Positions 44,255 to 60,581 of a stretch of DNA of 64,000 nucleotides are shown piece by piece. The stretch lies in contig CAVYSY010000033.1 of assembly GCA_963771175.1 (NCBI GenBank), positions 224,001 to 288,000 on the forward strand, written 5' to 3'. Numbering within the stretch: the stretch's first letter is position 1; every line of letters begins with the position of its first letter. A program made the position numbers and the translations under genes. This DNA comes from an uncultured delta proteobacterium. GTDB lineage: Bacteria > Myxococcota > Myxococcia > Myxococcales > Myxococcaceae. Under the pieces are notes generated by a model. It saw nothing but the letters and a program-made list of their open reading frames with translations, was not told the origin of the DNA and did no database searches.

Positions 44255-44435
44255 GTGTGCAGGTCCTTCTTGAGCTGGAACTGGCAGTGAGGAGATGGAC
44301 TGATATTTTTATCGTGGTTGGCCCAAACCTGTCCATGGGGGGTGGGAACTCCCCGCAGTCCGAGACCTCCCGCAATAGCAAGGGCGGGGCCCCGTATAGG
44401 AGCACCCGCCCCATTGACACCGCTCGGCGAACGAC

Positions 44436-45005
44436 CTAGCGGATGTTGCCGATGATGGACTTCTGCGTCTCACCGCGCATCTTGATGACGTTGCTGATCA
44501 TCTGGACCATCTCGGAGTAGTTCTGCAGCTCGTACTGGGCCTTGAGGCGGGCGGCGTCCTTCGGATCCAGGCCCTCGAGCGACTTCTGCTGGGTGGCCGA
44601 CAGGCCCTTGCCCGTCTGCGCCATGGAGATGGCGTTGTCCCAGATGCCGCCGCCGCTGGCCGCGGTGGTCACCGCGTTGTTGATGGCGCCCGTCTCGACA
44701 CCCGAGCGAGCCGGGATGCTCGGGGCCGGAGCCGCACCACCGGTCGCACCGCCCACGGGAGCGGGGGTGGAGGGCAGGCTGGTGCTCACGCCACCCTGGG
44801 TGGCGGACGGGGCGGGCAGACCGAGGGCCTTGGCGACCTGGTCCAGCAGGCTCTTCTTGGCCGCCTCGAAGCCGGACTTGAAGAAGTCGCCGATGACGTT
44901 CTTCAGCGCGTCCTTGACGCCGTTGAGAACCGTGCCGCCGATGCCGCCGCTGCCGAGGATCTTGCCGAGGTCAATCTTGGGAAGCTGAAAGCCGCCGATC
45001 TTCAT
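44436..45005 (-). CDS. Candidate T3SS substrate/filament subunit with SctF-like C-terminus
   Basis: C-terminus LQNYSEMVQMISNVIKMRGETQKSIIGNIR; Gly/Ala-rich body. Confidence 0.6.
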   Translation of the reverse strand: MKIGGFQLPKIDLGKILGSGGIGGTVLNGVKDALKNVIGDFFKSGFEAAKKSLLDQVAKALGLPAPSATQGGVSTSLPSTPAPVGGATGGAAPAPSIPARSGVETGAINNAVTTAASGGGIWDNAISMAQTGKGLSATQQKSLEGLDPKDAARLKAQYELQNYSEMVQMISNVIKMRGETQKSIIGNIR

Positions 45006-45059
45006 TTGGGTCTCTCCAGTCGAGGGGGCGGCGTCAGTGCCGCCCTGCTTACAAACAGA

Positions 45060-45086
45060 TTATCGCGGGAGCGCTCCGGGAGTTTC
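45060..45086 (-). promoter_or_regulatory. Sigma28-like promoter GAAA-N15-CGCGATAA
   Basis: Same -10 and spacing as the other two copies. Confidence 0.7.
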
Positions 45087-45109
45087 CTCCCCGATTTTCC
45101 CGCCTTTTC

Positions 45110-45589
45110 TCAGCGCCGGCCCAGCGACTCCAACATCGCGGAAGCCTTGGCGAAAACCGTCTCGTCGTCCTTGGCGAGCTGGGCGGCGCGGCGCAGATCC
45201 TCCACCGCCTGGGCCTTCTGGCCCATGGACAGCTTCACCTCGGCGCGACCCACGTAGGCGGCGGCGTCGCTGGCGGCCAGCTTGAGGGCCACGTCGTAGG
45301 CGGCCAGCGCGCCCTGCGGGTTGCCGGCGGCCATCTCCACCACGCCGAGCGCCTTGGCGAAGTAGGCGTCCGCGGGGTTGACGGCGTAGAGGCCCTGGAA
45401 GAGCGTGCGCGCCTCGTTCACCCGGCCCTGGTAGAAGAAGTAGTAGGCCGTCTTGGCGATGGCGTACAGCTCCTCGTCCGTGTAGCCGCGGACGTCGCGC
45501 AGCGTCGCCTTGCCGTCCGCCCACCGCTGCATGAGCGTGTCGAGCTTCGCCTCGTCCTGCTGGGGGTTGTTCGAGTCCGGTGCGGCCAT
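45110..45589 (-). CDS. SycD/LcrH-like TPR chaperone
   Basis: TLRDVRGYTDEELYAI...AYYFFYQGRVNEARTLF class II chaperone pattern. Confidence 0.85.
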   Translation of the reverse strand: MAAPDSNNPQQDEAKLDTLMQRWADGKATLRDVRGYTDEELYAIAKTAYYFFYQGRVNEARTLFQGLYAVNPADAYFAKALGVVEMAAGNPQGALAAYDVALKLAASDAAAYVGRAEVKLSMGQKAQAVEDLRRAAQLAKDDETVFAKASAMLESLGRR

Positions 45590-45593
45590 GGTG

Positions 45594-46071
45594 CTAGTAC
45601 CCCTCGTCCTGCTGCTCCTCGCGCATACGGCGCTGGATTTCCTGAATCTCCGCGTGGACCTGGCCCACCAGCGCCAGCATCTGCGCCTCGCGCTGCAGCA
45701 GGCCCTTCAGGCGCTCCATGCGCTCGGGCGGCGCGTTGATGCGCCCCAGGCTGCGCTCGAGCTGCTGGCGCTGCTCGCCATCCGCGCGCCCGGCCACGCT
45801 GCCCAGGTACGGCCGGTCCGAGAAGCCCTCGAGGTCCGCGTCATTGCCCCTTGGGCTGCGGAGGCGAGGGCAGGCGGACCTCCTCGGAGGAGTGCGCCGG
45901 GCCGATGAAGTCCAGCAGCGCCGCCGAGGCGAGCGCCGGGTTCTTCGGGTTGCCAACCTTGCGCTTCTTGCGATCGAGCTGGGAGGGATCGACCAGCTTC
46001 TCTCGGACCGCGCGGGGTCCCCCCCAGGGCCAGAGGGGTGCTCTCGGGGGCTGATTGTTGATTTTGGCCAT
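45594..46071 (-). CDS. T3SS-associated hypothetical protein, frameshifted near 45848
   Basis: MAKINNQ...PPQPKG continues as NDADLEGF...coiled-coil tail in the adjacent frame. Confidence 0.6.
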
Positions 46072-46121
46072 GGTCTGGACCGAACCTCACTCGATTTGGG
46101 GGCCTGGAGTCTACCCTACCC

Positions 46122-46400
46122 TCAGCGTTTGCCGCCTGCCTGCTCCTGCTGGAGGGCGAAGACGAAGTTGAGGACCTCGGCCACCGCGTCGTAGAGCTCC
46201 TCGGGGACCTCCTGGCCCACGTCGATGCGGTAGAGCGCGTTGGCCAGCGGCACGTTCCTCATGATGGGGATGTTGTACTGCTTGGCGATCTCCCGGATCT
46301 TCTCCGCCTTGAGGCGCATCCCCTTGGCCACCACGCGCGGGGCGGCGTCCTTGTCCTTGTCGTACTTGAGCGCGATCGCCATCTCGACATCGTCACTCAT
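46122..46400 (-). CDS. Stand-alone FlhB/SctU C-terminal-like protein
   Basis: AIALKYDKDKDAAPRVVAKG...PEELYDAVAEVLNFV. Confidence 0.9.
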   Translation of the reverse strand: MSDDVEMAIALKYDKDKDAAPRVVAKGMRLKAEKIREIAKQYNIPIMRNVPLANALYRIDVGQEVPEELYDAVAEVLNFVFALQQEQAGGKR

Positions 46401-46436
46401 GGGAACCTCGCGTCGGGGCGGTGGACAGGCGCGGCA

Positions 46437-47502
46437 TCAGGCGCGCGCCACGGGGGTGGGATTCTTCAGGCCGTAGACGAAGTTGAGCACCTCGGCGACG
46501 GCGTCGTAGAGCTCCTCGGGGATCTCCTGGCCCACCTCCACGCGCAGCAGCGCGTGCGCCAGGGGCACGTTGCGCAGCGTGGGCACGTCCGCGTCGCGCG
46601 CGAGCGCCTTGATGCGCTCGGCCTTGAAGTCCAGGCCCTTGGCCAGCACCCGCGGCGCCTCGTCCTTGTCCTTGTCGTACTTGAGCGCCACGGCCACGTG
46701 GTCGGGGTTGGTGACGATCACGTCGGCGTCCTTCACGGCCTCCATCTGCGCGCCCTCCAGGATCTCCTGGTGCATCTCCTTGCGCTTGGCCTTGTGGTGC
46801 GGGTCGCCTTCGCTCTCCTTGTATTCCTTCTTCACCTCGTCCTTCGTCATCATCATGTCCTTCATGTAGGACTTGCGCTGCCACCAGACGTCGAAGATGG
46901 CGAAGAGGAAGAAGACCATGCCCACGCGCACGGAGACGCGGTAGACCAGCTCGCCCATGATGGCCATCATGGTCGCGGTGTCTCGGCGCACCGTCTCCAC
47001 CACCAGGGGCATGGAGTCGCGCACCACTCCGAAGATGACGTAGGCGGCGATGGAGATCTTGATCAGGTTCTTGAGCAGCTCGACGAGCTGCTTCTTGCCG
47101 ACGAGGTTCTTCAGGCCCTCGAGCGGGTTGAGCTTCTCGAGCTTGGGCATCAGCGGATCCATCGTGAACAGCGAGCCCACCTGGAGGAAGTCCAGGAGAC
47201 CGCCGACGATGGCCACGGCCGCCACCACCGGGAGGGTGAGCATCACCACCGAGCTCAGCCCCATCAGCATGAGCTCGTAGGTGGCCTTCTCCAGATCCTC
47301 CGGGTGGGCGATGTGCGCGAAGCTGAAGTGGAAGAGCTCGGTGACCTGCTCCTCCAGATCGGGCCAGGTGGCCTTGACCACGCCCAGGCCGACGATGAAC
47401 CCGAACACGCCGGTCAGGTCCTTGCTCTTCCAGACCTGACCCTTCTTGCGTGAGTCGTCGAGCTTCTTTTGTGAGGGTTCTTCTGTCTTTCTCGTCGGAC
47501 AT
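46437..47502 (-). CDS. sctU: T3SS export switch SctU (FlhB family), frameshift near 47489
   Basis: MSDE/KTEEPSQKKL..RKKGQV, KESEGDP, cleavage loop TNPDH. Confidence 0.93.
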
Positions 47503-47518
47503 GGCGAGGAACCCCGGT

Positions 47519-48338
47519 TCAGCCGAGCAGGCGCACGGCGTCGCGCAACATGGCCAGCATGGCGGCGAACTCCGTCTGCAGCCGTCCCATGATGAGGCCG
47601 ATGGACATGAAGACGATGAGCACGCCCACCAGCGGCTTGATCGCCATGGAGATGAAGAAGACCTGGACCTGCGGGCGCCACGCGGTTGATGACGCCCAGC
47701 GCCAGGTCGGTCAGGAAGGCGGCCAGCGTGGCCGGCGCGGCGAGCGCGAGGGAGATCTTCAGCAGGTCCGCGAAGATGCGGATCATCAGGTCGAAGAAGG
47801 CCCAGGAGCCATGGCTGAAGCGCGGGAAGCCGTCCAGCGGGACGACCTCGAAGCTGTCGGCGAGCGCCTCGATGACCAGGTGGTGGCCGTTGAGCGTGAG
47901 GAAGAGCACCACCGCGAGCTGGACCTTGAGGCTGGAGAAGAGCGACACCTGCTGGCCGATCTGCGGCACGAAGAGCTGGGCCTTGTTGCTGCCCGACATG
48001 GTGTCCACGAGGGTGCCGGCCACGCGCGCCGCCTCGAAGACCACGTTCACGATGGTCGCCAGCGTCACCCCGATGAAGATCTCCTTGAGCATCAGCACGA
48101 TGTAGGGCAGCGCGCTGGTGGGGATGGCCCCCATGCGCGCGCTCACCGCCGGGAAGAGCACGATGGACAGCGTGACCCCCACGCCCATCTTCACCTCCGT
48201 GGGCACCACCTCGCCGCCGAGGAATGGCGAGAGCACCAGCACCGGCATGATCCGGCACATGAGCAGGCCCACGGTGAAGATGACGAGCGAGAGGTTGGCC
48301 TGCTCCGTCAGTCTGGTGAGGACATCGGAGACGTTCAT
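47519..48338 (-). CDS. sctT: T3SS export apparatus SctT (FliR family), frameshift near 47675
   Basis: KEIFIG, ARVAGTLVD, LNGHH, LGVINRVAP/QVQVFF. Confidence 0.92.
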
Positions 48339-48602
48339 CTGGCGATGAGAGCCGGGAACTGGTCGAAGACGTGGAAGGTGAAGCGCACAAGCTGATTGCC
48401 AATCCACGGACCGGTGAGCGCCAGCACCCCGAAGACGACGATGACCTTGGGAGCGAACGAGAGCGTCTGCTCCTGGATCTGCGTGGTGGCCTGGAAGACG
48501 GAGATGAGGAAGCCCACCAGGAGGCTCATCAGCACCGGCGGCGCCGAGGCGACGAGCACGAGGTAGAGCGCCTGCTGGAGTGATGAAGTTCAGCTGGTGC
48601 AT
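48335..48602 (-). CDS. sctS: T3SS export apparatus SctS (FliQ family), frameshift near 48580
   Basis: VGFLISVFQATTQIQEQTLSFAPK. Confidence 0.93.
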
Positions 48603-48610
48603 GTGCGCTC

Positions 48611-49431
48611 TCACAGGTAGCCGACGACCAGACCCTTGGCGATGAGGTACCAGCCGTCGACGAGGACGAAGAGCAGGAGCTTGAAGGGCATGGAGATGGT
48701 GGTCGGCGAGAGCATGTGCATGCCCAGCGCCAGCAGGATGTTGGCCACCACCATGTCGATGACGATGAAGGGCACGAAGAGCAGGAAGCCGATCTGGAAG
48801 GCCTCCTTGAGCTCGGAACCACGAAGGCCGGGACGATGATCATGAAGTCCCGGTCGGTGATGTCGCTGCGGTCCTCCTCGGCCCGCATCTTCTTGGCCAG
48901 GTTGAAGAAGAGCGCGCGGTCCTTGTTGGTGATCTTCTTGATCAGGAAGTCGCGCAGCGGCTCCTTGGACTTGTTGGCCGCCTCCAGCAGGGTGCCCACC
49001 GACTCCGAGGACAACAAGGCGGGGCCCTTGGCCAGGATGTCCACCTCCGAGGCCCGGTACATGGCCTGCCCCACCGGCGCCATGATGTAGACGGTGAGGA
49101 TGATGGCCAGGCCGGTGATCACCTGCGTGGGCGGAATCTGCTGGGTGCCCAGCGCCGAGCGCACGATGGAGAGCACCACGGAGATCTTCACGAAGCTCGT
49201 CACCATCATCAACACGAAGGGGACGAGCGACAGCGCGGCCAGCGCCAGCATCAGCACCAGCGGACGCGAGGCGAAGGAGTCGGGCGTCACCGACTCGGCG
49301 GCGACGGCCTCGGTGCCGGTGCCGCCGCCACGCTTGGCGGCGAGGGCGATGAAAGGATTCAACGCGATCGCCACGGCGAACAACCAGGGCGCGATGCGGA
49401 GGGTGGGGAGGCGAACGGTTGGCAATCTCAC
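48611..49431 (-). CDS. sctR: T3SS export apparatus SctR (FliP family), frameshift near 48815
   Basis: [50 protein letters not shown] [15 protein letters not shown]. Confidence 0.94.
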
Positions 49432-49442
49432 GGGTCGTCTCT

Positions 49443-50138
49443 TCAGGCGCTCGGCGGCTGGGTGCCGCTCGGCTGGGTAGCGCCCGATGGGGTGGCATCG
49501 CGCCGGGCGAGGAGCTTCTGGAGGAAAGGAGAAAGAGGAATCACGTTGGCGGGAGGGCGCTCGGAACGAATGCGCTCCACCGCCTCGGTATCGAGCTTCG
49601 ACAGCAGTTGCAGGCCACTCTCGCCACCGCCCACCAGCAGGTACTCACCCGCGGCCTTCAACACGAAAAGCGTGCGGCGCTGGTCCAGCGGCACCCGCTC
49701 CACCACCGATACCACCGAGGCCCGCCCCACCGGCACGCCCTGCAGCCCCATCAGTCTGCGCAGGCCCACGTTGAGCGTCAGGTAGATGCAGGCCACCACC
49801 GCGCCGAACAGCATCAGCGTACGCAGCAGCATCCAACTCAGGCTCTCGGGCTCCTCCTCCATGCCGGGCGGCAGGGAGGACCCCAGGGGCTCGTCCACGG
49901 AGGGCTGCGACGCCGTCGTGACCGGAGCGGGCGCGGCGGCCTTGTCCGCGGTGGCGTCCTTCGCAACGGGGGCCGGGGACTGTGGAGAGGGGGCCGCTTC
50001 AACGGCGGGAGACCGCACGACGGCGGACGCTGGCTGCGCGGGCGTTGCGGGAGCCTGGGCCCACGCCAACGGCGCGAGCAGCACGCACGCGCACGCCAGC
50101 ACGACCGGACGCAGGGATGAGACAAGAGACACTGCCAT
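49443..50138 (-). CDS. fliO: FliO-like protein
   Basis: Single TM then [26 protein letters not shown]; immediately upstream of sctR/fliP. Confidence 0.78.
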
Positions 50139-50294
50139 GGTGGGGCGCGAGGCTAGTGCATCGGGAAGGAGACCGCCACGGGCCTCCCCTCCCCTGCTCC
50201 GATCCTCCGCTCGCCTGCCTGGGTCAGCCCACCGCGGCACGCTCTGCTCTCCTCGTTCCAATGCCACGGCGGCTCCCACGGACGGGCGATGGGC

Positions 50295-51653
50295 CTAGCC
50301 CGCGAGAGAGATGATGCGAACGCCCAGGTGACCCTCGACTTCCACCAGCTCGCCCCGGGCCACCACCTTGCCATTCACCGAGAGGTCCACCGGCTCGCCC
50401 GGCGTCCGGTTCAGCTCGATGACCTGCCCCACGCGCATGGACACCACCTTATCCGCCGTCACCGGCACCCGGGCCAGCTCCACGGAGATCTGCAGCGGGA
50501 TGTCACCCAGCAGGTCGCCTGCATCCATTCTGTCGTCCACGGATCCACTCTCCGCCAAAGGGTTGCGCATCTCGGGGTTGGTGAACTCCTCCTGCTCCCC
50601 CGCTTCGCTCAGGGCCTCCGCCGCGGCCTCGTCCGACTCGGAGGGCACACGCCGCTGGAAGGACTGCTCCCCGAGCACCACCTCGGTGATTCGCGCCTGA
50701 TACTGACCGTTCTCGAGAAACACCTCCGAGTTCAGGCAGCCCACGCGTCCCAGCCCCAGGCGCAGCCGCGCGGTGCCCTCCTCGCCCCGGTCCGGCCGGG
50801 CCGAGAGAACGTCCACCAGCACCACGTCCTTCACCCGGAGGCTCGACAGGTCCTGGCTGGAGATCTCCGCGTAGCCGATCTCCGCCCGCAGCCAGGTGCG
50901 AGCCGAGGACAGGCGAGACAAGTGGGCCTGCGCGTCCGAGCGCAGCAGCGCCCGCCGATGCTCGGCCACCTGCGCCGGCTCCATCACCTCCAGCACGCCC
51001 GAGGGCACGAAGAGGCGCACCGTGCCCTCCTGGGAGCCGAGCTGGGCCCGGAACTGGACCACCAGCACCGGCCCATCCTCGCCCAGCCGCGCCGCCGCCT
51101 CATCCGCCCCGTGCGCCACTCCCTCCATGCGTAGCTTGGGCTGCCCCGGCTCCATCCCCGGCGCCAGCGCCTTGAGCGCCTCGAGGAGGACAAAGCCCAC
51201 CACACCTTCCTCGATGTCCGTCATGGGCCGCAGGCCGACCGTCTCCCCCGCGCCGCCCAGCAGCATGTCCACCACCGCGTGCGCCAGGGCCAGGTCCACC
51301 TCCAGCACCGCGCGCCCGCGATGCGGGCCGGGCACCAGGAAGGAGAGGAAGGAGGGCGCCGCCAGGTGCCGGCGCAGCTCGTTCGTTCCGAGGACCTGCA
51401 ACGCCTCCAACGTGAAGACGGGCTGCGCGTCGAAGATGGCCTTGAGCCGGGCGCACAGCGCCTCGATGGCCTCGGCCTTCGGCGTCAACCACTTCAGCCG
51501 ACCGGTGAGCCGGGACTCGGTGAGGGACACCTTCTCCAGCTTGTTGGCGAAGGAGAAGGGGCGCCACGGCTTCACCGAGCGCTTGAGCTGCCGGGTATCG
51601 ACCACCATGGTGCGCTCTTGTTCGCCGGGGCCATCGTCCATGTCGAGACTCAC
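50295..51653 (-). CDS. sctQ: C-ring protein SctQ (FliM/FliN family)
   Basis: C-terminal SPOA domain IPLQISVELAR...VNGKVVARGELVEVEGHLGVRI. Confidence 0.92.
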   Translation of the reverse strand: MSLDMDDGPGEQERTMVVDTRQLKRSVKPWRPFSFANKLEKVSLTESRLTGRLKWLTPKAEAIEALCARLKAIFDAQPVFTLEALQVLGTNELRRHLAAPSFLSFLVPGPHRGRAVLEVDLALAHAVVDMLLGGAGETVGLRPMTDIEEGVVGFVLLEALKALAPGMEPGQPKLRMEGVAHGADEAAARLGEDGPVLVVQFRAQLGSQEGTVRLFVPSGVLEVMEPAQVAEHRRALLRSDAQAHLSRLSSARTWLRAEIGYAEISSQDLSSLRVKDVVLVDVLSARPDRGEEGTARLRLGLGRVGCLNSEVFLENGQYQARITEVVLGEQSFQRRVPSESDEAAAEALSEAGEQEEFTNPEMRNPLAESGSVDDRMDAGDLLGDIPLQISVELARVPVTADKVVSMRVGQVIELNRTPGEPVDLSVNGKVVARGELVEVEGHLGVRIISLAG

Positions 51654-52609
51654 GACTTCGCCTCGACCCGCATGTCCTCGAGGGTGAGACCGCGCCCGGC
51701 CAACGCGCTCTTCAGACCCTCGCGCTGCTCCTCGAGCATCTTCAACACGTCACGATCACTGCCGCTGAAGACGGCCTGGATCTTCCCGTTCTTCGCGCTG
51801 AGCTTGATGGACAGGCCGCTGAGCACGTCGCCCCGGAGGTCGATCTGGAACTCCGCGTGGCCCGCGGCATTGGTGCCCACCCGCACCCGCTCGACGATCT
51901 TCTGGGCGATCTCGTTGGCGATGGCGCGCAGCCGCTCCGAGCCCGCGCCCGGCTTGGGCTTGGCCACCGGCACGGGCGCCATCAGCGCGGGGTTGAAACG
52001 GAAGCCGGCGGCCAGCTCCGGCGCGCCGTCCTTCTTGTCCTTGCCGTCCCCGCTGCCCTTGCCGCCGCCGTCCGCGTCCGTCTTGAGAGCGCCCTTGCTC
52101 CGGCCCGCCTGGGCGCCGGCCGCCGCGTTCTCGCTGCCCTTGCTCAGCGACTCGCCGCGCTCGCCCAGGGCGTCGTCGGTCGTCTTCGCGTCCGCGAGGC
52201 GCGACTCGGCGCGCGTGTGCACCACGCCCTGGTCGTTCTGCCGGCCCTGGGTCGCCTGGCTCGTCTGGGACGAGTCCGTCTGACGCCCCTCGGTCAGCCG
52301 CTCGCCCTCGCCCGTACGCGCCTGCTGGGTGCGCTCGCCCTGGGCCTTGTCCAACTGGCGATGCTGGGTGCGCTGGGTGTCCCCGCGCTGCTCCGTCTTC
52401 GCATCCTGCTGCAGGCGCGCCAGGACCGACTTCCCAATGCCCTGCTGCTGCTGCTGCTGGGCCTGGGGGGTCTTCTGCTGCTGGACCAGCTTGGAGAAGG
52501 CGTTCTCGCCCTCCGTGCGCTGCTTGTTCTTGGACTCCTGGAGGCGCTTCTCCTGGACGAGCCGCTCCGCGGCCTTCTGTGCCTGACGATCGTCTTCGAC
52601 TCGGCTCAT
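51650..52609 (-). CDS. sctP: SctP/FliK-like length-control protein
   Basis: Disordered Q-rich N-terminus plus C-terminal T3S4-like region (EFQIDLRGDVLSGL...LKSALAGRGL); sits between sctO and sctQ. Confidence 0.72.
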   Translation of the reverse strand: MSRVEDDRQAQKAAERLVQEKRLQESKNKQRTEGENAFSKLVQQQKTPQAQQQQQQGIGKSVLARLQQDAKTEQRGDTQRTQHRQLDKAQGERTQQARTGEGERLTEGRQTDSSQTSQATQGRQNDQGVVHTRAESRLADAKTTDDALGERGESLSKGSENAAAGAQAGRSKGALKTDADGGGKGSGDGKDKKDGAPELAAGFRFNPALMAPVPVAKPKPGAGSERLRAIANEIAQKIVERVRVGTNAAGHAEFQIDLRGDVLSGLSIKLSAKNGKIQAVFSGSDRDVLKMLEEQREGLKSALAGRGLTLEDMRVEAKS

Positions 52610-52639
52610 TGCGTCACACCGCCTGGGGGAACCCCGAGG

Positions 52640-53128
52640 TTACTTGCGCTGGCGCATCAGGAACAAGGTGTTCCCGATTTCCTCCTGGTTCAGCTCCTCC
52701 TTGGCCTGGCGCTCGGCCCGGAGTTGCTTCTGCCAGGTATCCTTGTGCTTCTCGATGGCCTTGAGCTCCTTGGCAGCCTCGGCCATCTCCCGCCGCCGCT
52801 GCTCCACCAGTCGCTCGGCGACCTTGACGGCCTCCTTCTGCCGCTCGATCTCCAGGGAGATCTGCGCCTCCTCGTCCTTGAGGCGCTCCTCGTAGCGGTT
52901 CATCATGGTGAGGCCGTTGACGCCGGCGCCCTTGGCCATGACCTGTTGGGAGTAGGCCAGCACCTTCTGCTTGCGCTCGGCCTTGCGCTTCTCGAGCTCC
53001 TGCTCGAGCCGCTTCTGCTCGGCCTTCTCCTTCTCCAGCGCCTTGACGGCGTTGGAGAAGGCCTGCTCGGCCTCCTCCTTCGCACGCTCGCGCATCTCGA
53101 GCAGGACCTGCAACCGGTAGGGGGGCAT
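52640..53128 (-). CDS. sctO: SctO/FliJ-like stalk protein
   Basis: YRLQVLLEMRER, coiled coil, directly after the ATPase. Confidence 0.82.
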   Translation of the reverse strand: MPPYRLQVLLEMRERAKEEAEQAFSNAVKALEKEKAEQKRLEQELEKRKAERKQKVLAYSQQVMAKGAGVNGLTMMNRYEERLKDEEAQISLEIERQKEAVKVAERLVEQRRREMAEAAKELKAIEKHKDTWQKQLRAERQAKEELNQEEIGNTLFLMRQRK

Positions 53129-53179
53129 GATGCCCGCATCCTAGCGCGGAAAGGCCCCGTCGCGTCACTCCCCGCGGCG

Positions 53180-54493
53180 TCAGTCCGCGAAGAGGCCGAT
53201 GAGCTGCTCGACGGTCTCCTCGAAGCCACTGTTGGAGTGGGTATCCTGCTTGAGGAAGTCGATGATGGAGTCGTACTTGTCGATGGCGTAGTCCGTCCGG
53301 GGGTCCGTCCCGTACTGGTAGGCGCCCAGGAGGATGAGGTCGCGCTGCTTCTCGTACGTGGAGAGCGTCTCGCGCAGCTTGCCGGCCGCCTTCTTGTGCT
53401 CCTTGGAAACGATGCCGCTCATCACACGGGAGAGGCTGGCCAGCACGTCCATGGCGGGCCACTGGTTGCGCTCGCCCAGGGCACGGTTGAGGATGAAGTG
53501 GCCGTCGAGAATACCGCGGACCTCGTCGGCGATGGGCTCTTCCATGTCACCGCCGGCCACGAGGCAGGTGTAGATGGCGGTGCACTTGCCCTTGTCCGAG
53601 TTGCCCGTGCGCTCGAGGATGCGCGGCAGCATGGAGAACACGCTCGGCGGATAGCCTTGGCGCGCCGGGGGTTCACCGATGGCGAGGCCGATCTCACGCT
53701 GGGCGCGGGCCAGACGCGTCACCGTGTCGAGCATGAAGAGCACGTTGCCGCCACGCTCGCGGAAGTACTCGGCGATGGCCGTGGCCACGTAGGCGGCGCG
53801 CAGACGCACGAGGCTCGGCTGGTCCGAGGTGGCGCACACCAGCACGGAGCGCTTCATGCCCTCCTCGCCCATGGCGTCCTCGATGAACTCGCGAACCTCG
53901 CGACCACGCTCGCCGATCAGCGCCACCACGCACAGATCCGCCTTGGTGTTGCGGGCGATCTGCCCCATCAGCGTGGACTTGCCGACGCCCGAGCCGGCGA
54001 AGAGGCCCACGCGCTGGCCCTCTCCCACGGTGAGCAGCCCGTCGATGCAGCGCACCCCGAGCGGCAGCGGGCGTTCGATGCGCTGGCGCTTGAACGGGTC
54101 CGGGCAGTCCCGGTCCACCGACCAATCGATCAGGCCCCCGGGCAGCGGACTGCCGTCCATGGGCTCGCCAATGCCATTGAGCACGCGGCCCAGCAGCCCT
54201 TCCCCGCACTTGATGGAGAGGGGCCTGCCCGTGGGGATGACCTCGCTGTCCGGGCCGATGCCGTACAGCTCACCCAGGGGCATGAGCATCACCTCGTCGC
54301 CCTGGAAGCCCACCACCTCGGCCTTCACGGAGCTGCGGCTGCCATGGCCCTTGATGACGACCAACTCGCCCACCCGCACGCCAGGCACGCTCGCCTTGAT
54401 GACGAGACCCGTCAGCTCGGTGACGCGGCCCCGCACCCGGTACAGCGGCGCTTCCTTGATCAGCGAGTAGTAGCGCGAGAGATCGATGGCCAT
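53180..54493 (-). CDS. sctN: T3SS ATPase SctN (FliI/YscN family)
   Basis: GQRVGLFAGSGVGKST, ALIGERGREVREF, GEPPARQGYPPS, ILDGH. Confidence 0.97.
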   Translation of the reverse strand: MAIDLSRYYSLIKEAPLYRVRGRVTELTGLVIKASVPGVRVGELVVIKGHGSRSSVKAEVVGFQGDEVMLMPLGELYGIGPDSEVIPTGRPLSIKCGEGLLGRVLNGIGEPMDGSPLPGGLIDWSVDRDCPDPFKRQRIERPLPLGVRCIDGLLTVGEGQRVGLFAGSGVGKSTLMGQIARNTKADLCVVALIGERGREVREFIEDAMGEEGMKRSVLVCATSDQPSLVRLRAAYVATAIAEYFRERGGNVLFMLDTVTRLARAQREIGLAIGEPPARQGYPPSVFSMLPRILERTGNSDKGKCTAIYTCLVAGGDMEEPIADEVRGILDGHFILNRALGERNQWPAMDVLASLSRVMSGIVSKEHKKAAGKLRETLSTYEKQRDLILLGAYQYGTDPRTDYAIDKYDSIIDFLKQDTHSNSGFEETVEQLIGLFAD

Positions 54494-54495
54494 GG

Positions 54496-55170
54496 CTACG
54501 GAGGACCCTCCTTCTTGCCCTGATCCGGGAACAGCACGTTCTGCAGCATCTCGAACTGGGTGGGGAGCTGCGCGTCCACCGTGCCGAACTCCGTCTGCAC
54601 GATGCAGCCCACCGGGGCCACGTCCGGATCCTCGCGGATGGCCACGTCCACCGCCCGGCCGATGAGCTCCATCAGCTCCGACTTGCGAGCGCGCAGCACC
54701 GCCGCCGACTTGGGATTCACCCGGAGCACCACCGCCCGGGCGTTGCGCAGCTCCTCGATGGCCTTGGCGCAGATGTCCACCAGCAGCGTCGGGTCTCGCT
54801 CCACGTCGCGGCCGATGATCTTCTCGGAGATCTTGCACGCCAGGGCGACCACGTCCTGCTCCTGCCGGGCCAGGATGTCCCCGGCCTGCATCTTCGCGCG
54901 GAGGATGATCTCCGTGGCCTGGGCCATGCCCTCCTGCTTGCCTTGCTCGCGGGCCTTGGCCAGCACGTCCTCGCGCTCCTTCTGGGCCTCCGCGAGGATG
55001 CGCTCCTTCTCCCTCTGCGCCTCCTCGATGATGCCCTGGGCCGTCTGCCGAGCATCGAAGACCTCGGCGTTCATCACGCCCGCGCGCGGAGGTGGACGCA
55101 ATGCCGGCCGTTCCCCGCCGGACGGCGAATCGGTCGCCGAATCGCCCTTGATCACCTTGCCGATCGCCAT
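54496..55170 (-). CDS. sctL: Stator SctL (FliH family)
   Basis: AREQGKQEG, LRVNP, GCIVQTEFGTVDA. Confidence 0.9.
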   Translation of the reverse strand: MAIGKVIKGDSATDSPSGGERPALRPPPRAGVMNAEVFDARQTAQGIIEEAQREKERILAEAQKEREDVLAKAREQGKQEGMAQATEIILRAKMQAGDILARQEQDVVALACKISEKIIGRDVERDPTLLVDICAKAIEELRNARAVVLRVNPKSAAVLRARKSELMELIGRAVDVAIREDPDVAPVGCIVQTEFGTVDAQLPTQFEMLQNVLFPDQGKKEGPP

Positions 55171-55194
55171 CGAAGACTCCTTGTCAGCGGGATG

Positions 55195-56763
55195 CTAGCG
55201 CGTTCCGCCCCGCGGTCCACGCCCACTCGTACCCTGTTCGCCCGGCCGAGAGCGTCGCTGGACCCTCGTCCCCTCCTCCTTCACCGCCGGCAGGGAGGTG
55301 CTGGTGCCCACCACCCGTGGAGGGCGCTCGGATTCCACCTCGGGCTCGACACGGGGCGCGGCGCTCCGGCTGTGCGTGCGCGCTACCGGGGAGCGAAAGA
55401 CGCGCGAGCCCTCCGCCTCCGGGACAACCGGCTCTTCGACACGAGACCGGGTGGGGCCCCGGGTGGGTGCCGGCCCAATCCGGACCCCGGTGGGATCCCT
55501 CGCCATCGCCATGGATGGCTCCTGCCGATCCTTCCGGGGGGTCACCCGACTCACCCGCGAGGAGTCCGCCGCATCTTCCTGCGAACGTCCCGCGTAGCTC
55601 GGGCCGACGGCCCCCGCCCGGCGAGCCTCGCGCTCGGCGATGGGATCCCTCCGCACGCCCACCACCGACTGGGAGGACATGGAGCGCCGGACCGAGGGCT
55701 CCGAGCTGGCACCCGCGCGCATCTCCCGCGATAGGGACGGACCGCGCGCCGGGGGAGGCGCCGCCGGCCTGGCGACGGCTGGAGGAGGAGGACCAAGAGA
55801 GGGCGGACGCGCCGGGGTGACCCGGACCGGGCGCTCGATGAGGCCTCGGGCCGCGAGCCGCTCCAGGTCCGAGACGATGTCCGTACGGCCACCGTCGCCG
55901 CGGCTCGTCGGCTTGGCGCGCTCCTCGCGCACCCACTTCGCGAGGGTCTGCCCGAACTCGCCGCGATGCTTCTCCAGCAGACGTGCCGCGAACTCGGGGG
56001 ACTGGATCACGCTCGCACGCGCCAGCCGGTGCACTCCGGCCCCCCGAATGGTGGCGGCCAGGCTCTGCAAGCCACCGTACTGCTCGAGCTGCGCCTTGGC
56101 GTCCTCCTCGGCGAGCTTTCGCGGCGCATTGGCGGACACGGACCGCGTGGCGAGCTGGCGCAGGTGCGGCGGCAGTGCCGCGAAGGCCGGCTCCCGCTCC
56201 GCCTCGGGCAGGCCCGCCAGCGCCGGCCCCAGCACGCGCGCCCCCAGCCGATCGCACACGGTGAGCAGCTCGCGCGTCTGCAGCACCAGCACGTCGGGGA
56301 ACTTGAAGGGGACATGCGGCGCGGACTCGCGCGAGAGCAGCTCCTCCAGCGTCCAGCGCACGATGTCCAGCACCTGGGGCCGGACGTCGCGCGTGAACTT
56401 CACCCGCCCCGTGGAGGGCAGGTGGGAGCGCACCGCGTCCGCCAGCGGCGCCGGCAGCGCACGCAGCACCACCTCCACGACAGCCAGGCGCTCGCGCTTG
56501 AGCAGGCCCGCCAGACGCTCCGGATCCGCGCTCCACAACTGCCCACGCCGATCCCTCACCAGCCGCTTGATCTCCTGGACCAGCAGCGGGATGCGCTTCT
56601 CGCGCGGAATCTGGGAGATCTCCTGAGCCCGGTGCTGGAGCAGCTCCGCCTCATCCTCGGGCAGGTGCTCCAGCGCGCTGATGCCCTCCTGACCACCGAA
56701 GGTAATGGCGGTCAGCAGCATCATCGTCTGTCGCTTGCTCAGCGAGGTGAAGAACTGGTCCAA
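55195..56763 (-). CDS. FliG/SctK-like protein with long disordered C-terminus
   Basis: Position between sctJ and sctL; helical N-terminal half with FKFPDVLVL..REL resembling FliG; Pro/Arg-rich tail. Confidence 0.55.
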   Translation of the reverse strand: MDQFFTSLSKRQTMMLLTAITFGGQEGISALEHLPEDEAELLQHRAQEISQIPREKRIPLLVQEIKRLVRDRRGQLWSADPERLAGLLKRERLAVVEVVLRALPAPLADAVRSHLPSTGRVKFTRDVRPQVLDIVRWTLEELLSRESAPHVPFKFPDVLVLQTRELLTVCDRLGARVLGPALAGLPEAEREPAFAALPPHLRQLATRSVSANAPRKLAEEDAKAQLEQYGGLQSLAATIRGAGVHRLARASVIQSPEFAARLLEKHRGEFGQTLAKWVREERAKPTSRGDGGRTDIVSDLERLAARGLIERPVRVTPARPPSLGPPPPAVARPAAPPPARGPSLSREMRAGASSEPSVRRSMSSQSVVGVRRDPIAEREARRAGAVGPSYAGRSQEDAADSSRVSRVTPRKDRQEPSMAMARDPTGVRIGPAPTRGPTRSRVEEPVVPEAEGSRVFRSPVARTHSRSAAPRVEPEVESERPPRVVGTSTSLPAVKEEGTRVQRRSRPGEQGTSGRGPRGGTR

Positions 56764-56804
56764 CGGTCACCCCGCGGGAGAGAGACGTTCCAGAAAAACG
56801 ACGG

Positions 56805-57599
56805 TCACTGCTTGGAGCGGGCCCGCGCCGTAGCGGCGCCACCACCACCGCCGCGCATCAGAGACCACGCCGACAGGCCGATGGCGGCCAGGATGATCAG
56901 CACGGACACGCCAGCCATCATGCGGAACTGGCCCACGCTGGCCGCCGTCATGCGCATGCCCATGACGTCCTGCAGGCGGCTCTCCGCGCTCACCTCCGCG
57001 TCGGTGGCGACCGCGGCCGTCAGCAGCACCGTGACCGCTTCCGGCTTCAGCTCCGGCACGGCGGTGGAGACGAACTTCCGCACGTCATCGGGCTGGATGG
57101 GCGGCTGGTTCTTCGGGCCGGGCCGGTACTTGACGAACACCGACGACGAGGGCATCGGCTTGTTCTCCGGCTGGGTGAGGTCGTTGTTCTCCGGGATCAT
57201 CACGATGACCCGGGCCTCCAGCACGCCGTCGATCTGGTTCAGTGCGTTGGACACCTCACCACCGAGCGCCTTGAGCATCATGGCGCGCTCCTCGGTGGCG
57301 GTGGGCACCATGCCGCCCTTGGCGAAGTGGTTCAGCCCCTTCTCCATCGGGCGCGGCAGCGAGTACGCCCGCAACAACTCCGCAGCCTGAGCGGCGTCCG
57401 CCTTGGGGACCACGATGCGGAAGCGGACCTCGTTTCCGCCCTCTTCCTTCATCTTGGTGGCGGCGATGCCGTTCTTGCTGAGCAGGACGTAGATCTCATT
57501 GGCGTCCTGCTCGGTGAGATCGTGCTGCAGGTCGATGGAGCAGCCAGTCCCCAGCACGAGGGCGAGGAGGGCGGCGAGCGCGTACGGTCGGAGCGTCAT
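56805..57599 (-). CDS. sctJ: Inner-membrane ring lipoprotein SctJ
   Basis: Lipobox LGTGC; LTEQDANEI..LL, IDGVLEARV, SSSVFVKY, C-terminal TM. Confidence 0.94.
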   Translation of the reverse strand: MTLRPYALAALLALVLGTGCSIDLQHDLTEQDANEIYVLLSKNGIAATKMKEEGGNEVRFRIVVPKADAAQAAELLRAYSLPRPMEKGLNHFAKGGMVPTATEERAMMLKALGGEVSNALNQIDGVLEARVIVMIPENNDLTQPENKPMPSSSVFVKYRPGPKNQPPIQPDDVRKFVSTAVPELKPEAVTVLLTAAVATDAEVSAESRLQDVMGMRMTAASVGQFRMMAGVSVLIILAAIGLSAWSLMRGGGGGAATARARSKQ

Positions 57600-57662
57600 G
57601 GGCGGTCCTAGCTTAGATGTGGCGCCTTGTTTCCAACAAGACCCAACCCGGAAAGAGGGGGC

Positions 57663-57702
57663 AAAACGCGAAAAGGCGCCCCCTCCCATTGGAGGAGACG
57701 CC
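57663..57702 (-). terminator. Intrinsic terminator between sctI-like gene and sctJ
   Basis: GGCGTCTCCTCC-AATG-GGAGGGGGCGCC followed by TTTTCGCGTTTT on the minus strand. Confidence 0.7.
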
Positions 57703-57734
57703 CTTCTGGGGGACCGGCAAAAGCCGGCCGCTCG

Positions 57735-58268
57735 CTACACCTGGGTCTTCAGGGTGTCCTTGAGGCCGCTGGTGGCCTTCTCGACCACCTTGCTCGTCAG
57801 ATCCAGCTCCTGGGTGTACTTGTACATACCCGCCTGGAGCGAGATCAGCTCGGCGTTGGAGAAGCTCTTCCCCGAGGCGCCGGCCTTGATGAGCTTCTCC
57901 ATGTTGAGCTGGCCCTTCTCCAGCTCGCTGACGACGTGCGAGAGCATGCCGCCGCTCTTGCTCGCCTCCTGCTTGCCGGTGACGGCCTCGGCGCCGCGCG
58001 CGGTGGCGGGCTCCTGGCCAGCGGTGTTCACCTTGTTGAGCGCCGCCTTCTCCGTCTTGTTGACGGCCTCGGTCTGACGCACCTGCTCGGCGCGCTGGGT
58101 GGCCTGAGCCGCCTGAGCCGCCTGGGCCTGCTCCGGCCCCTGAGCCTTGTTAGCGAGGGCCGCGTCGAACTTCGAGGCCCCCTGCTTGTTGACCTGCTGC
58201 GCGCCCTGATCCTGCACCTTCTGCTGGGCGACCTGAGCTGCCGAGACGCCGGCCATCGGACCCGCCAT
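57735..58268 (-). CDS. Inner rod SctI-like protein
   Basis: C-terminus ELISLQAGMYKYTQELDLTSKVVEKATSGLKDTLKTQ fits the YscI/HrpB2 pattern; directly upstream of sctJ. Confidence 0.65.
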   Translation of the reverse strand: MAGPMAGVSAAQVAQQKVQDQGAQQVNKQGASKFDAALANKAQGPEQAQAAQAAQATQRAEQVRQTEAVNKTEKAALNKVNTAGQEPATARGAEAVTGKQEASKSGGMLSHVVSELEKGQLNMEKLIKAGASGKSFSNAELISLQAGMYKYTQELDLTSKVVEKATSGLKDTLKTQV

Positions 58269-58980
58269 GTGACTGCCTCCTTGAATCCACAGGGGAGGAA
58301 GACTCCTCCTCGTTCAACAGTTCCTTGAGCCGTTCGATCGCCCGCGCATGCAGGCGAGACGCCCAGCTCTTCGACTGCCCGATCTCCGCCCCCGCCTCTT
58401 CCAGCGTCTTGCCCTGGAAGTAGTAGCCCTGCAGAAGCCGGCGCTCCTTCTCCGGCAACTTCTCGATGGCTGCCCTCACCCTCACCCGCTGCTGCTCGAG
58501 CTCCAGCCGTTGATCCACCGGCAGGGACTCGTCCGAGAAACCCAGCGAGTCTGCACCTTCGAGGCTGGTCGCGAACACCATCGCCAGTCCCGCCACCGCG
58601 TTGGAGATGTCCATTACATCATCGTCAATGGACCCCCCGCGGTTGCCTCCTCCCTGCTCGCGATCCGAAAGATTTCCCAGATACGCGGAGGCCCGCTCAC
58701 TCATGTAGGAGGAGCGCGCATCGCCCCCCTTGAGCACTCCCATCTTGCGCAGGCCATCGTAGATGGCGCCCTTGATGCGGTAGTGGGCAAAGGTGAGGAA
58801 GTTGGCTCCTACCTTGGGATCAAAGCGATCGGCCGCCTCCAGGAGGCCAATCTGGCCGTAGGCGATGAGCTCGTCGAGCTCGAGCTGGGCGGAGAACTGC
58901 CTGCGCACGGTCGCCGCCAGCGACCGCACGTAGGGGCCGTACTTCTCCAGGAGAACCTTCTTGTCTTCGCCGAGCCCCAA
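58150..58980 (-). CDS. fliA: FliA/WhiG-family (sigma28) RNA polymerase sigma factor
   Basis: DELIAYGQIGLLEAADRFDP, TFAHYRIKGAIYDGLR, LPEKER..YY..TLEEAG..SWASRLH. Confidence 0.85.
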   Translation of the reverse strand: MGLGEDKKVLLEKYGPYVRSLAATVRRQFSAQLELDELIAYGQIGLLEAADRFDPKVGANFLTFAHYRIKGAIYDGLRKMGVLKGGDARSSYMSERASAYLGNLSDREQGGGNRGGSIDDDVMDISNAVAGLAMVFATSLEGADSLGFSDESLPVDQRLELEQQRVRVRAAIEKLPEKERRLLQGYYFQGKTLEEAGAEIGQSKSWASRLHARAIERLKELLNEEESSSPVDSRRQSHGGSDGRRLGSSGRPAEGAGSGRAAGQQAGGLEVRRGPR

Positions 58981-58987
58981 GCGCCGC

Positions 58988-59398
58988 TCACTCAGCCTTC
59001 GACCACAACCGCTCGAGGGCCTGATTCAAACGGGGATCATCCTGCAGGGCGTCGGCGATCTTGCTGGTCAAGGCCGACGACTTCATCCGCAGCTTCTCCT
59101 TGAGCACCTCGGAGACGAGCTTGCGCGTCGCCTCGTCCTTGCTCTTGAAGTCCCCGTTCTTCAGTTGTTTGGCGATGGCAAGCGCCTGGGAGGTGATGGG
59201 ATCCGTGGCCTGGGGCCCCTGCACGTTGCTGGAGCCCACCGCACCGGAGGGACCTACCAGGCCCGCGGAGCGATCCACCGTGCCACCAAAAGTCGCAGCC
59301 CCTGCCTTGCCGGCTGACGCCTTGCCGGCGGGCCCCTTGGCGCCCCCGGCACGTCCCTTTCCGCCGCCTCGTCCGACTCCACCGACCGACATCGGCAT
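58988..59398 (-). CDS. Small protein, candidate FlgM-like anti-sigma factor
   Basis: Disordered N-terminus; AIAKQLKNGDFK and SKIADAL resemble the FlgM C-terminus; 7 nt upstream of fliA. Confidence 0.45.
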   Translation of the reverse strand: MPMSVGGVGRGGGKGRAGGAKGPAGKASAGKAGAATFGGTVDRSAGLVGPSGAVGSSNVQGPQATDPITSQALAIAKQLKNGDFKSKDEATRKLVSEVLKEKLRMKSSALTSKIADALQDDPRLNQALERLWSKAE

Positions 59399-59417
59399 GA
59401 CCTCCTGTCAATGCATT

Positions 59418-59855
59418 CTACTTCTTCGCGGTGGCTGGAGGCAGAGCCCCCGCCTCCTTCGCCTCGAGGAGCGCCTTGGCCAGGCGAGCCCCGTCACCCT
59501 CGGGCTCCAGGTCCATGGCGGCCTTCAACTCCTTCAGGGCCTCCGGCACCTTACCCATGAACAGCAGGGCCTCGCCCGCGTGTGCCCGCGGCAGAGCGGA
59601 GTTGGGAGCGAGCCGCTGGGCCGCCCGGTAGGACTGCAGCGCCTTGTCGTGACGACCCTGGGCGAACTCGAGCGAACCGAGCGCCAGTTGCGGCACCTCG
59701 CTCTTGGGCATCAGCACCGCGGCCCCGGCGAAGACTTCACGCGCCTTCTCGAACTGGCCCATGTCGAGCCACAGATAGCCCGCCTCGAGGAGGATCATCG
59801 CCTCACGCCGAGCGAGGGGAACGAGGCTGCCCGAGATCTCCGAAGTCTCCGCCAT
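59418..59855 (-). CDS. TPR chaperone-like protein
   Basis: GYLWLDMGQFEKAREVF and three TPR-like helix pairs. Confidence 0.78.
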   Translation of the reverse strand: MAETSEISGSLVPLARREAMILLEAGYLWLDMGQFEKAREVFAGAAVLMPKSEVPQLALGSLEFAQGRHDKALQSYRAAQRLAPNSALPRAHAGEALLFMGKVPEALKELKAAMDLEPEGDGARLAKALLEAKEAGALPPATAKK

Positions 59856-59949
59856 GTGTCGTCCGCTTCCTTTTCTGGTCCGGGAAGGCCCGGAGGGAGC
59901 AACCGCGTCCCCCCGAGCCCCGGACCCCTGAGACCGCCAGCGACAAGCG

Positions 59950-60486
59950 CTAGCGGATGTTGCCGATCGCGTTCTTCGACGTATCGTGCCGCGTCTTCAG
60001 CACGTTGGAAATGGTGCTGAACACCTGGTTCTCCTTCTGCATGGAGATCTGCACGCCCAGGAGCTTCTTCTGCTCGGAGAACATGCTCTGCATCTCTCCG
60101 TTGAACTCGCCGCCCACGTTGCTGTTACCGCCCACGTTGACGGAGCCGGTGCCGCCGGTGCTGCCACCCGGGATGCCACCGCCGGAGCCCACCGTGGTGT
60201 TCGCGGGCACGCCGCCCGAGGACAGGGCCGCGCCGACGTAGGGGGCCGAGCCGGAGCCGCTCGAGTTGCTGAAAGTGGTCAGCGAGGACACCGCGGCGGA
60301 CACCACGGAGCCACCGGGCACCAGGTTGGCCGCCATGCCCACGCCACCAGCCACCACGTTGGCCGCGGTGCCAACACCCGACTGCACGCGAGCCGAGAAG
60401 CTCGTGTCCGGGGTCGCCCGGGCCGTCGTCATGTTGGTGGACATCCGGGGCATGTTCAGCGAGCTGTCGATTCCCTTCACACTCAT
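59950..60486 (-). CDS. Candidate T3SS substrate/filament subunit with SctF-like C-terminus
   Basis: C-terminus LLGVQISMQKENQVFSTISNVLKTRHDTSKNAIGNIR. Confidence 0.62.
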   Translation of the reverse strand: MSVKGIDSSLNMPRMSTNMTTARATPDTSFSARVQSGVGTAANVVAGGVGMAANLVPGGSVVSAAVSSLTTFSNSSGSGSAPYVGAALSSGGVPANTTVGSGGGIPGGSTGGTGSVNVGGNSNVGGEFNGEMQSMFSEQKKLLGVQISMQKENQVFSTISNVLKTRHDTSKNAIGNIR

Positions 60487-60554
60487 GGTTCTTCTCCAGG
60501 CAATGGAACGACCAGGTTCAGAGCCCCGTGGGGTCCGGCGCTCTCACTCCTGCA

Positions 60555-60581
60555 TTATCGGTGATCGCCCGACGCAGTTGC
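60555..60581 (-). promoter_or_regulatory. Sigma28-like promoter GCAA-N15-ACCGATAA
   Basis: Near-consensus -10 and exact 15-nt spacer; shares ACGCAACT with the 43582 copy. Confidence 0.75.

Follow-up and report, generated by a model that had tools for sequence, protein, structure and literature searches.

Two genes of a myxobacterial type III secretion system (T3SS) cluster encode proteins, denoted P0003 and P0004, that on the evidence of their sequences are best regarded as a new needle/pilus subunit variant lacking any annotation, in a system described as needle-less in the literature. They lie in a stretch of 64,000 nucleotides, henceforth the window, from an uncultured delta proteobacterium of the family Myxococcaceae (GenBank assembly GCA_963771175.1, contig CAVYSY010000033.1, positions 224,001 to 288,000). 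The T3SS cluster occupies 40.9-60.5 kb of the window, is on the minus strand throughout (as are all window features given below without a strand), and encodes SctV/U/T/S/R/Q/P/O/N/L/J together with an SctI-like rod protein. Neither P0003 nor P0004 is a canonical SctF, both having double its length, novel N-terminal domains, and Gly-rich linkers.

The myxobacterial T3SS is one half of the contact-dependent predation machinery of Myxococcus xanthus, and excerpts of the published work tie the M. xanthus system to prey lysis rather than killing. In passages of Abby and Rocha (2012; PMC3459982), the myxobacterial system branches off earliest among the non-flagellar T3SSs, SctF is missing from the Myxo systems although it “should have been found”, and the ancestral SctF “was lost”. 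Passages of one review from 2023 and of a research paper and a further review from 2025 (PMC10433427, PMC12075869, PMC12428579) likewise describe the system, termed T3SS*, as without needle, secretin, and translocon, so that the needle-less description of the M. xanthus T3SS*, given in an initial annotation of the window, is indeed what this literature says. A literature search, whose sources did not include the primary T3SS* paper (Cell Reports 2022), found no report of SctF or of a needle-like protein in Myxococcus. The supposed absence of SctF underlies two ideas, namely that the ancestral needle gene was lost in this lineage and that the tips of Kil pili replace the needle. A needle-family gene in this cluster contradicts the published reading that SctF was lost. 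Both ideas would be open to question again if an SctF-related gene is conserved at the sctF position, for which the arguments are further members behind the same promoter-like motif, the retention of rod and ruler, and presence in most sampled Myxococcota genomes.

Architecture of P0003 and P0004

P0003 (44436-45005, minus strand) has 189 amino acids (aa) and the C-terminus ISNVIKMRGETQKSIIGNIR, and P0004 (59950-60486, minus strand) has 178 aa and the C-terminus ISNVLKTRHDTSKNAIGNIR. Both open reading frames (ORFs) are present where the initial annotation had placed them, its omission of the strand being the one point to supply, and the codon-position GC of both genes is coding-like for this genome, with a third-position value (GC3) of 0.92 for P0003 and >0.8 for P0004. 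Aligned by BLASTP, the two proteins match over the last 36 residues only (44% identity, E 8e-8). Profiles of the two families, whose alignments hold 17 P0003 relatives (A1) and 33 P0004 relatives (A2), align in hhalign over 53 C-terminal columns with a probability of 97.7% (E 1.9e-12), and this C-terminal likeness, as judged by sequence comparison, exceeds chance.

Both proteins have a three-part layout. In P0003, a conserved amphipathic N-terminal domain (residues 1-64, net charge +4, hydrophobic moment up to 0.56 within residues 26-53) is followed by a Gly/Ala/Pro linker (residues 65-126, 73% G/A/S/T/P) and by a needle-like C-terminal helix-turn-helix with DPKD at the turn, a hairpin suggested in the low-confidence AlphaFold2 (AF2) model. 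P0004 begins with a signal-like segment and continues with a nearly uncharged Gly/Ala/Val-rich hydrophobic segment (residues 30-72, KD19 maximum 1.49, charged residues 2%), a Gly/Ser/Thr linker (residues 73-125, 74% G/A/S/T/P, zero charged residues), and a needle-like C-terminal helix (residues 126-178). The Gly/Ala/Ser-rich N-termini of the initial annotation are therefore real as regions of composition but are central rather than strictly N-terminal in position, and the length of this central region differs among orthologues of both proteins in the family alignments.

The C-terminal helix and the needle family

Homology of the C-terminal helix of P0003 and P0004 to needle subunits is very probable, and several independent model and profile searches back the needle-subunit-like character that the initial annotation had noticed in both C-termini. 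In P0003, residues 140-188 align with positions 20-71 of the 71-position needle model PF09392 (E 3.3e-5, 24.4 bits), and the SctF model TIGR02105 also matches (E 3.9e-4, 20.8 bits). When the whole 9.8-Mb genome was scanned in six frames with PF09392, the only matches were the four copies of P0003 (27 bits, E 4.7e-5) and a P0004 paralogue in a second, short T3SS cluster (E 7.6), all described below; the M. xanthus orthologue of P0004 scores 16.8 bits with the same model.

A profile built from the C-terminal 64 residues of 35 diverse family members (A3), searched against 177,635 PDB sequences at E<=10, gave seven matches: EsaG, five PrgI entries, and one unrelated protein. The best of them is 7Y6C chain F (E 1e-7, 35.3 bits), which represents the needle protein EsaG of Edwardsiella (residues 33-73) according to the data-availability statement of the corresponding paper (PMC9426511). 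In the five PrgI matches (E 0.4-0.9) the alignment reaches the last residue, and the S-N, K, D, I, N, and R are equally spaced. Compared in hhalign with an alignment of 20 SPI-1-type SctF sequences (A6), drawn from a collection of SctF relatives, with MxiH taken from the annotated plasmid pCP301, A3 aligns over 37 columns that reach both C-termini (E 7.7e-5, probability 61.8%) and A1 over 56 columns that include the turn (E 3.9e-4, probability 35.5%); for A3 against MxiH alone the probability is 9.5%. Among 147 family representatives, the commonest Pfam families were needle (27), HrpA pilin (12), and HrpF (6), all sub-threshold, and the ESM Atlas, taken as a source of leads only, gave values of 0.86-0.90 for clusters of the family’s own type, 0.80 for HrpA, 0.79 for HrpE, and 0.79-0.80 for needle.

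P0003 and P0004 resemble the SctF needles (MxiH, PrgI, EsaG/SsaG, YscF) in the C-terminal helix pattern S-N-x-x-K-x-x-x-D-x5-I-x-N-x-R, placed at the very C-terminus as the matches of A3 with EsaG, PrgI, and MxiH indicate, and in P0003 the alignment spans the turn as well. The pattern that the initial annotation had quoted for PrgI/MxiH (SN..K...D.....I.N.R) agrees with the sequences of both. P0003 and P0004 alike stay below the curated PF09392 and TIGR02105 scores, and neither is a small two-helix hairpin of ~70-90 aa.

A multi-copy family across the Myxococcota

Searched with A3, a collection of 1.84 billion proteins yielded 4,622 representative clusters at E<=1e-3, with the module at the very C-terminus in all 150 best. 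In public sources, family members are named “hypothetical protein” everywhere, one evidently spurious label excepted. The C-terminal module occurs (E<=1e-5) in 254 of 301 sampled Myxococcota genomes, a tally that takes in the window’s genome and one unpublished genome (G201), and in 109 of the 115 genomes of the window’s own family.

This genome holds six family members: P0003, P0004, three more P0003 copies, and one P0004 paralogue. The two distant paralogs of the initial annotation understate this family, which is large, phylum-wide, and composed of several subtypes. The extra P0003 copies (C28:65326-65895, C28:66115-66684, and C31:141326-141895) are 93-95% identical, and each stands behind its own copy of the promoter-like motif described below, among unrelated neighbours (thioesterases, RtcB, and Fic; SufBD, a short-chain dehydrogenase, and a periplasmic binding protein).

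Members of canonical needle size occur in related genera. Cystobacter fuscus (L097/L108) has a 73-aa member in two tandem copies that adjoin a T3SS cluster, with the promoter motif before each, and Archangium minus (L102/L107) has one of ~76 aa at five tandem sites, also beside a T3SS cluster, that carry the motif. Canonical-size needle-like genes are likewise seen in tandem arrays beside a T3SS cluster at two Myxococcus loci (L105 and L100), again with the motif before each. In C. fuscus, the gene that comes next behind the motif codes for a 382-aa protein containing a poly-Thr linker. At a Corallococcus coralloides locus (L106, 1-1686, plus strand), a 562-aa frame, still open at the locus’s 5′ end, has a needle-like C-terminal helix and a weak match to NolX, a T3SS translocon-associated family (E 3.5e-5, below cut-off).

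Conserved gene order and orthology with the Myxococcus xanthus system

P0004 heads a conserved, operon-like gene order. Directly downstream of it lies the gene of a 145-aa TPR protein and candidate chaperone (59418-59855), with matches to LcrH_SycD (E 1.9e-12, 47.1 bits), SctY (1.8e-5), and CdsG (9.7e-5) that are all below cut-offs, and with a mean column identity of 79% in the TPR alignment. Then follow a conserved 136-aa protein of no family (58988-59398), which sits between the TPR and sigma genes, a FliA/WhiG-type (sigma-28 family) sigma factor (58150-58980; TIGR02479 E 5.4e-31, below the equivalog cut-off), the 177-aa SctI-like inner-rod protein (57735-58268; PF17001 E 2.2e-3, below cut-off), and the inner-membrane ring lipoprotein SctJ (56805-57689; family matches). 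The SctI-like protein was itself tried as a member of the needle-like family and rejected (hhalign probability 2.5%).

Loci with P0004 relatives numbered 479 in a scan of species-representative genomes, and the best 80 entered the analysis; the denominators given here are those among the 80 that have enough downstream DNA. Downstream of the P0004 orthologue come the TPR gene in 76/76 loci, the 136-aa unknown in 75/75, the sigma gene in 73/73, and the SctI-like gene in 73/73, and farther downstream SctJ in 68/72, SctL in 52/55, and SctN in 51/53. P0003 has comparable company: a 184-aa TPR protein downstream (43700-44254; LcrH_SycD 85.6 bits, short of the cut-off of 104.8) and, upstream, a 159-aa class II T3SS chaperone of the LcrH/SycD family (45110-45589; TIGR02552 111.2 bits, above the cut-off of 104.8). 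A TPR gene immediately downstream, as the initial annotation had it, is accordingly present for both P0003 and P0004.

Contig C32 carries the second, short T3SS cluster. It is headed by a full-length P0004 paralogue (37% identity over 171 aa), directly followed by a paralogue of SctI (39% identity, E 3e-19), SctJ, and then SctQ, SctR, and SctS. Its order P0004 type-SctI-SctJ is the classical sctF-sctI-sctJ, like mxiH-mxiI-mxiJ on pCP301, so that the position next to sctI/sctJ that is typical of needle genes is occupied by a family member in the short cluster, whereas three genes intervene in the long one.

One of the related loci is from a Myxococcus xanthus strain, in which Pfam confirms an identical gene order. 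SctN occurs once in that genome, with 93% identity to the window protein and on the same contig as the P0004 orthologue locus, and sequence comparison thus supports orthology between the window cluster and the M. xanthus cluster carrying that genome’s only SctN. Matched by order and SctN, the cluster resembles the M. xanthus T3SS* (MXAN_2434-2464) in its succession of P0004 orthologue, TPR, sigma, SctI-like, SctJ, SctL, SctN, FliK-like, and SctQ genes, and also in being secretin-less, a trait checked in the window. The difference lies in the needle, of which the literature, in the passages cited above, denies any homologue, whereas here an SctF-related gene heads the cluster. Public relatives closest to the window bear the label Archangium sp. 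Of the words sampled from the M. xanthus stretch, 74% occur in RNA libraries (14 runs from five studies), and contigs from four of these runs span the full 2,701 bases with 26 differences; at 3.1-57 kb such contigs may contain DNA, and no inference on expression is drawn from them.

A conserved promoter-like motif and a sigma gene in the cluster

The sigma28-like promoter attributed to both genes by the initial annotation is supported by a motif before each of them, by its conservation, and by the FliA/WhiG-type sigma gene in the cluster. The motif reads GCAAC-N16-CCGATAA at 60555-60581, 68 nt before the start codon of P0004, and GAAAC-N15-GCGATAA at 45060-45086, 54 nt before that of P0003. 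A third copy (43582-43608) precedes an 84-aa ORF (43306-43560), a candidate further substrate whose N-terminus, MSVSGIGGPRVPPST..., is P0004-like. In 79 of the 80 related loci, the hexamer CGATAA stands at most 260 nt upstream of the P0004 orthologue, nearly always, by eye, with GCAAC or GAAAC ~15-17 nt before it and with a spacer that varies freely.

The sigma-28 consensus is TAAA-N15-GCCGATAA. The -10 half of the motif (CCGATAA/GCGATAA) matches an element like GCCGATAA, whereas its -35 half is GCAAC/GAAAC and not TAAA, and the sigma gene itself, as noted, stays below the equivalog cut-off. Counts of the short element are uninformative by themselves: SCGATAA occurs four times in the window, three of them within the cluster, and 17 of 100 shuffles reach four, which is not above chance, and hence the case for a promoter rests on position and conservation. 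A scan of 43000-62000 for the sigma-70 consensus found nothing.

The two-part motif (GCAAC/GAAAC-N13-17-CGATAA) has 21 matches genome-wide, about half of which may be spurious, since a rough estimate from base composition expects ~10 by chance. It precedes all four P0003 copies, P0004, the 84-aa ORF, and several small or Ser/Thr-rich proteins, and it offers a route to a candidate substrate list of the system. Other genes that it precedes are candidates for substrates or lytic cargo, and the P0004-like N-termini of the 84-aa ORF and of a 112-aa protein on contig C24 hint at a shared export signal. Motif sites elsewhere in the genome include C24:33758-34966 (two copies), C24:214614, C30:205072, C33:431802, C52:170796, and C52:263570. 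Among the proteins whose genes follow a motif are the C24 112-aa protein just mentioned, one of 152 aa (encoded twice) that starts with a strongly cationic, amphipathic stretch of 45 residues (charge +8, hydrophobic moment 0.72), one of 777 aa with an N-terminus that is LysM-like by eye, and Ser/Thr-rich proteins of 248-316 aa.

Functional interpretation and alternatives

We consider it reasonably likely that P0003 and P0004 belong to the SctF superfamily as divergent members, in which a novel N-terminal domain and a variable Gly-rich linker precede an SctF-like helix ending at the C-terminus, and, by analogy, about equally so that they are exported subunits that assemble. The C-terminal homology, the cluster context, and the promoter conservation are observations, and the steps by which the proteins would work are drawn by analogy with injectisomes and flagella. 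Flagellin is transcribed from a sigma-28-type promoter, and the cluster’s sigma factor would likewise transcribe P0003 and P0004. The neighbouring TPR proteins would keep the C-terminal helix in the cytoplasm, as PscG, YscG, and EsaH do with needle subunits, and the proteins would leave through SctRSTUV, powered by SctN/L/O. The C-terminal helices would then assemble on the SctI-like rod to form an axial structure, its length gauged by the FliK/SctP-like protein, with the N-terminal domains and linkers on the outside, like the variable domains of flagellin or EspA. Without a secretin of its own, the system might keep this structure in the periplasm or pass it through another envelope conduit.

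Several likenesses to known systems are consistent with such a role. The P0004 paralogue in the short cluster lies, like an SctF gene, before sctI-sctJ, and the TPR-type gene that adjoins the subunit gene in 76/76 loci recalls SctG-type chaperones, with CdsG, SctY, and LcrH matches that are weak; the needle chaperones PscG, YscG, and EsaH have a TPR motif, according to an excerpt of the EsaG paper (PMC9426511). The retained ruler (SctP/FliK-like, 51650-52609; hook/needle-length-control C-terminal domain PF02120, 32.1 bits, above the cut-off of 29.8), SctO, and SctU make sense if an axial structure is built. The three-part layout with a central region of variable length resembles that of flagellin and EspA filaments, and the sigma-28-type promoter motif and the multiple gene copies in this genome (six members) resemble those of flagellin, pilins too being multi-copy. 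Unlike in flagellin and EspA, the middle of P0003 and P0004 is low-complexity rather than a folded domain, and no match to the flagellin or EspA families was found in any Pfam scan of the window proteins, the 33 P0004 relatives, or the 147 representatives. HrpA, HrpE, and HrpF of the Hrp pilus recur weakly (HrpA_pilin 12/147, HrpF 6/147, and the ESM Atlas leads) and belong, like P0003 and P0004, to the needle-family relatives that exceed SctF in length and divergence, but these matches are sub-threshold, their taxa are different (plant pathogens), and the N-terminal domains are not common to them.

A number of results weigh against P0003 and P0004 as diverged SctF-type subunits. No curated needle cut-off is reached (24.4-27 bits against 29.4 for PF09392; 20.8 against 41.7 for TIGR02105), P0004 has zero matches to Pfam or NCBIfam in the family scans, and PF09392 touches 5 of its 33 relatives, all at E>=0.048. 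The full-length P0004 family profile retrieved no needle from the PDB, and the hhalign probabilities against needles (9.5%, 61.8%, and 35.5%) are moderate. For P0004 the alignment covers the C-terminal helix alone, the adjacent first helix of the hairpin not being evident, and its AF2 model, of low confidence, has a single long C-terminal helix and no hairpin; the AF2 monomers of both proteins (mean pLDDT, the predicted local distance difference test, 49.6 for P0004 and 42.5 for P0003) are too poor for fold searches. Both proteins are, at 178-189 aa, about twice as long as SctF (~70-90 aa), and they further differ from SctF needles in their conserved novel N-terminal domains, a Gly-rich linker of 50-60 residues, and a promoter-like motif of sigma-28 type. 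The three P0003 copies outside any T3SS cluster fit secreted cargo equally well. Finally, there is no secretin within the window, the nearest being at C33:191508-192037, on the same contig and ~73 kb from SctV, and an extracellular needle is thereby left unexplained.

The main rival takes P0003 and P0004 for secreted substrates that do not polymerise, being tip-, translocator-, or effector-like, with a helix that would dock to the SctI rod, the export gate, or a TPR chaperone and N-terminal domains that would act on prey membranes in T3SS-dependent lysis. We regard this as unlikely, though a serious contender. LcrH/SycD-type TPR chaperones classically serve hydrophobic translocators, and one TPR neighbour does exceed the TIGR02552 cut-off. 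Residues 30-72 of P0004 are hydrophobic and Gly-zipper-like, a cationic and amphipathic pair of helices makes up the P0003 N-terminus, three P0003 copies lie scattered away from T3SS clusters, and the promoter motif is shared with other candidate cargo such as the 152-aa cationic and 777-aa proteins; the link of the system to prey lysis and not killing, in the published excerpts, points the same way. Against it, the most conserved part across subtypes is the C-terminal needle-like helix, the polymerisation element of SctF, relatives of canonical size without the extra domain form tandem multi-copy arrays in related genera, and the sctF position before sctI-sctJ, together with the retained ruler, favours a structural role.

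FlgM acts as an exported anti-sigma factor in flagellar systems, and P0004 could by the same token be a largely disordered, secreted anti-sigma factor whose C-terminal helix binds the sigma factor until export, its needle likeness being incidental. The order P0004-TPR-136 aa-sigma kept in 73/73 loci, the resemblance of the promoter motif to the sigma-28 class, and the little stable structure that AF2 gives beyond the C-terminal helix would suit this. It is nevertheless quite improbable: PF04316 matches neither P0004 nor any of the 33 relatives or 147 representatives, among which needle and pilus families recur instead, the C-terminal profile matches needle proteins in the PDB, the short cluster has its P0004 paralogue before SctI-SctJ with no sigma gene among the 12 ORFs scanned there, and the 136-aa protein beside the sigma gene is an equally good anti-sigma candidate. 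Least probable of all is that the needle likeness reflects chance or convergence of amphipathic helices in proteins whose function is unrelated to the T3SS, as might be argued from curated-model matches that are all below cut-off and an aligned stretch of just 37-56 columns, given that independent searches converge solely on needle and pilus families, that the alignment reaches the last residue in both families, that the genes are fixed within T3SS clusters in every locus with enough DNA, and that a profile E of 1e-7 against the PDB is not marginal.

If P0003 and P0004 are indeed SctF-type subunits, a broader proposal can be framed, which we hold as speculative and rather unlikely. The system would not be needle-less but would have its own sigma-28-type factor, an axial filament of SctF-like subunits, and membrane-active N-terminal modules on the filament surface, lysing prey beside or through Kil/Tad. 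The subunit and its flagellar-type regulation would be the survivor of a stage intermediate between the axial proteins of flagella and the minimal injectisome needle, and the ancestral non-flagellar T3SS would have kept SctF. Flagellar-type traits are retained elsewhere in the cluster, in the FliO-like protein, the SctQ with a FliM N-terminal domain, and the 522-aa protein weakly matching FliG_C described below, and they fit this proposed intermediate position.

The remainder of the cluster and its surroundings

Downstream of P0003 and its TPR neighbour, the cluster ends with the export gate SctV (40903-43029; TIGR01399 820.9 bits, above cut-off). Upstream of P0003 and its chaperone lie a separate 92-aa ORF with the FlhB/SctU C-terminal domain only (46122-46400; PF01312 E 8e-29), and a fused SctT-SctU (46437-48614), which the NCBIfam fused FliR/FlhB model also matches and whose ORF start is over-extended, the SctT match beginning at residue 113. 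Next come SctS (48335-48559; PF01313 E 1e-25), SctR (48611-49498; family matches), the FliO-like protein (49443-50279; family match), and SctQ with FliM and FliN domains (50295-51653; family matches). Beyond the ruler gene lie the YscO-like SctO (52640-53128; PF16789 E 9e-46), the ATPase SctN (53180-54838; TIGR02546 647.5 bits, above cut-off), again with an over-extended ORF start and a match from ~residue 125, the SctL/FliH stator (54496-55170; family matches), and the 522-aa protein with the weak FliG_C match (55195-56763), which may or may not take an SctD/SctK role.

Just outside the cluster and divergent from it, a gene on the plus strand (38725-39846) encodes a protein with two FHA domains that also matches the YscD cytoplasmic domain family. 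Its neighbours encode a large TPR protein (37639-38694) and an RDD-family protein (36214-37011).

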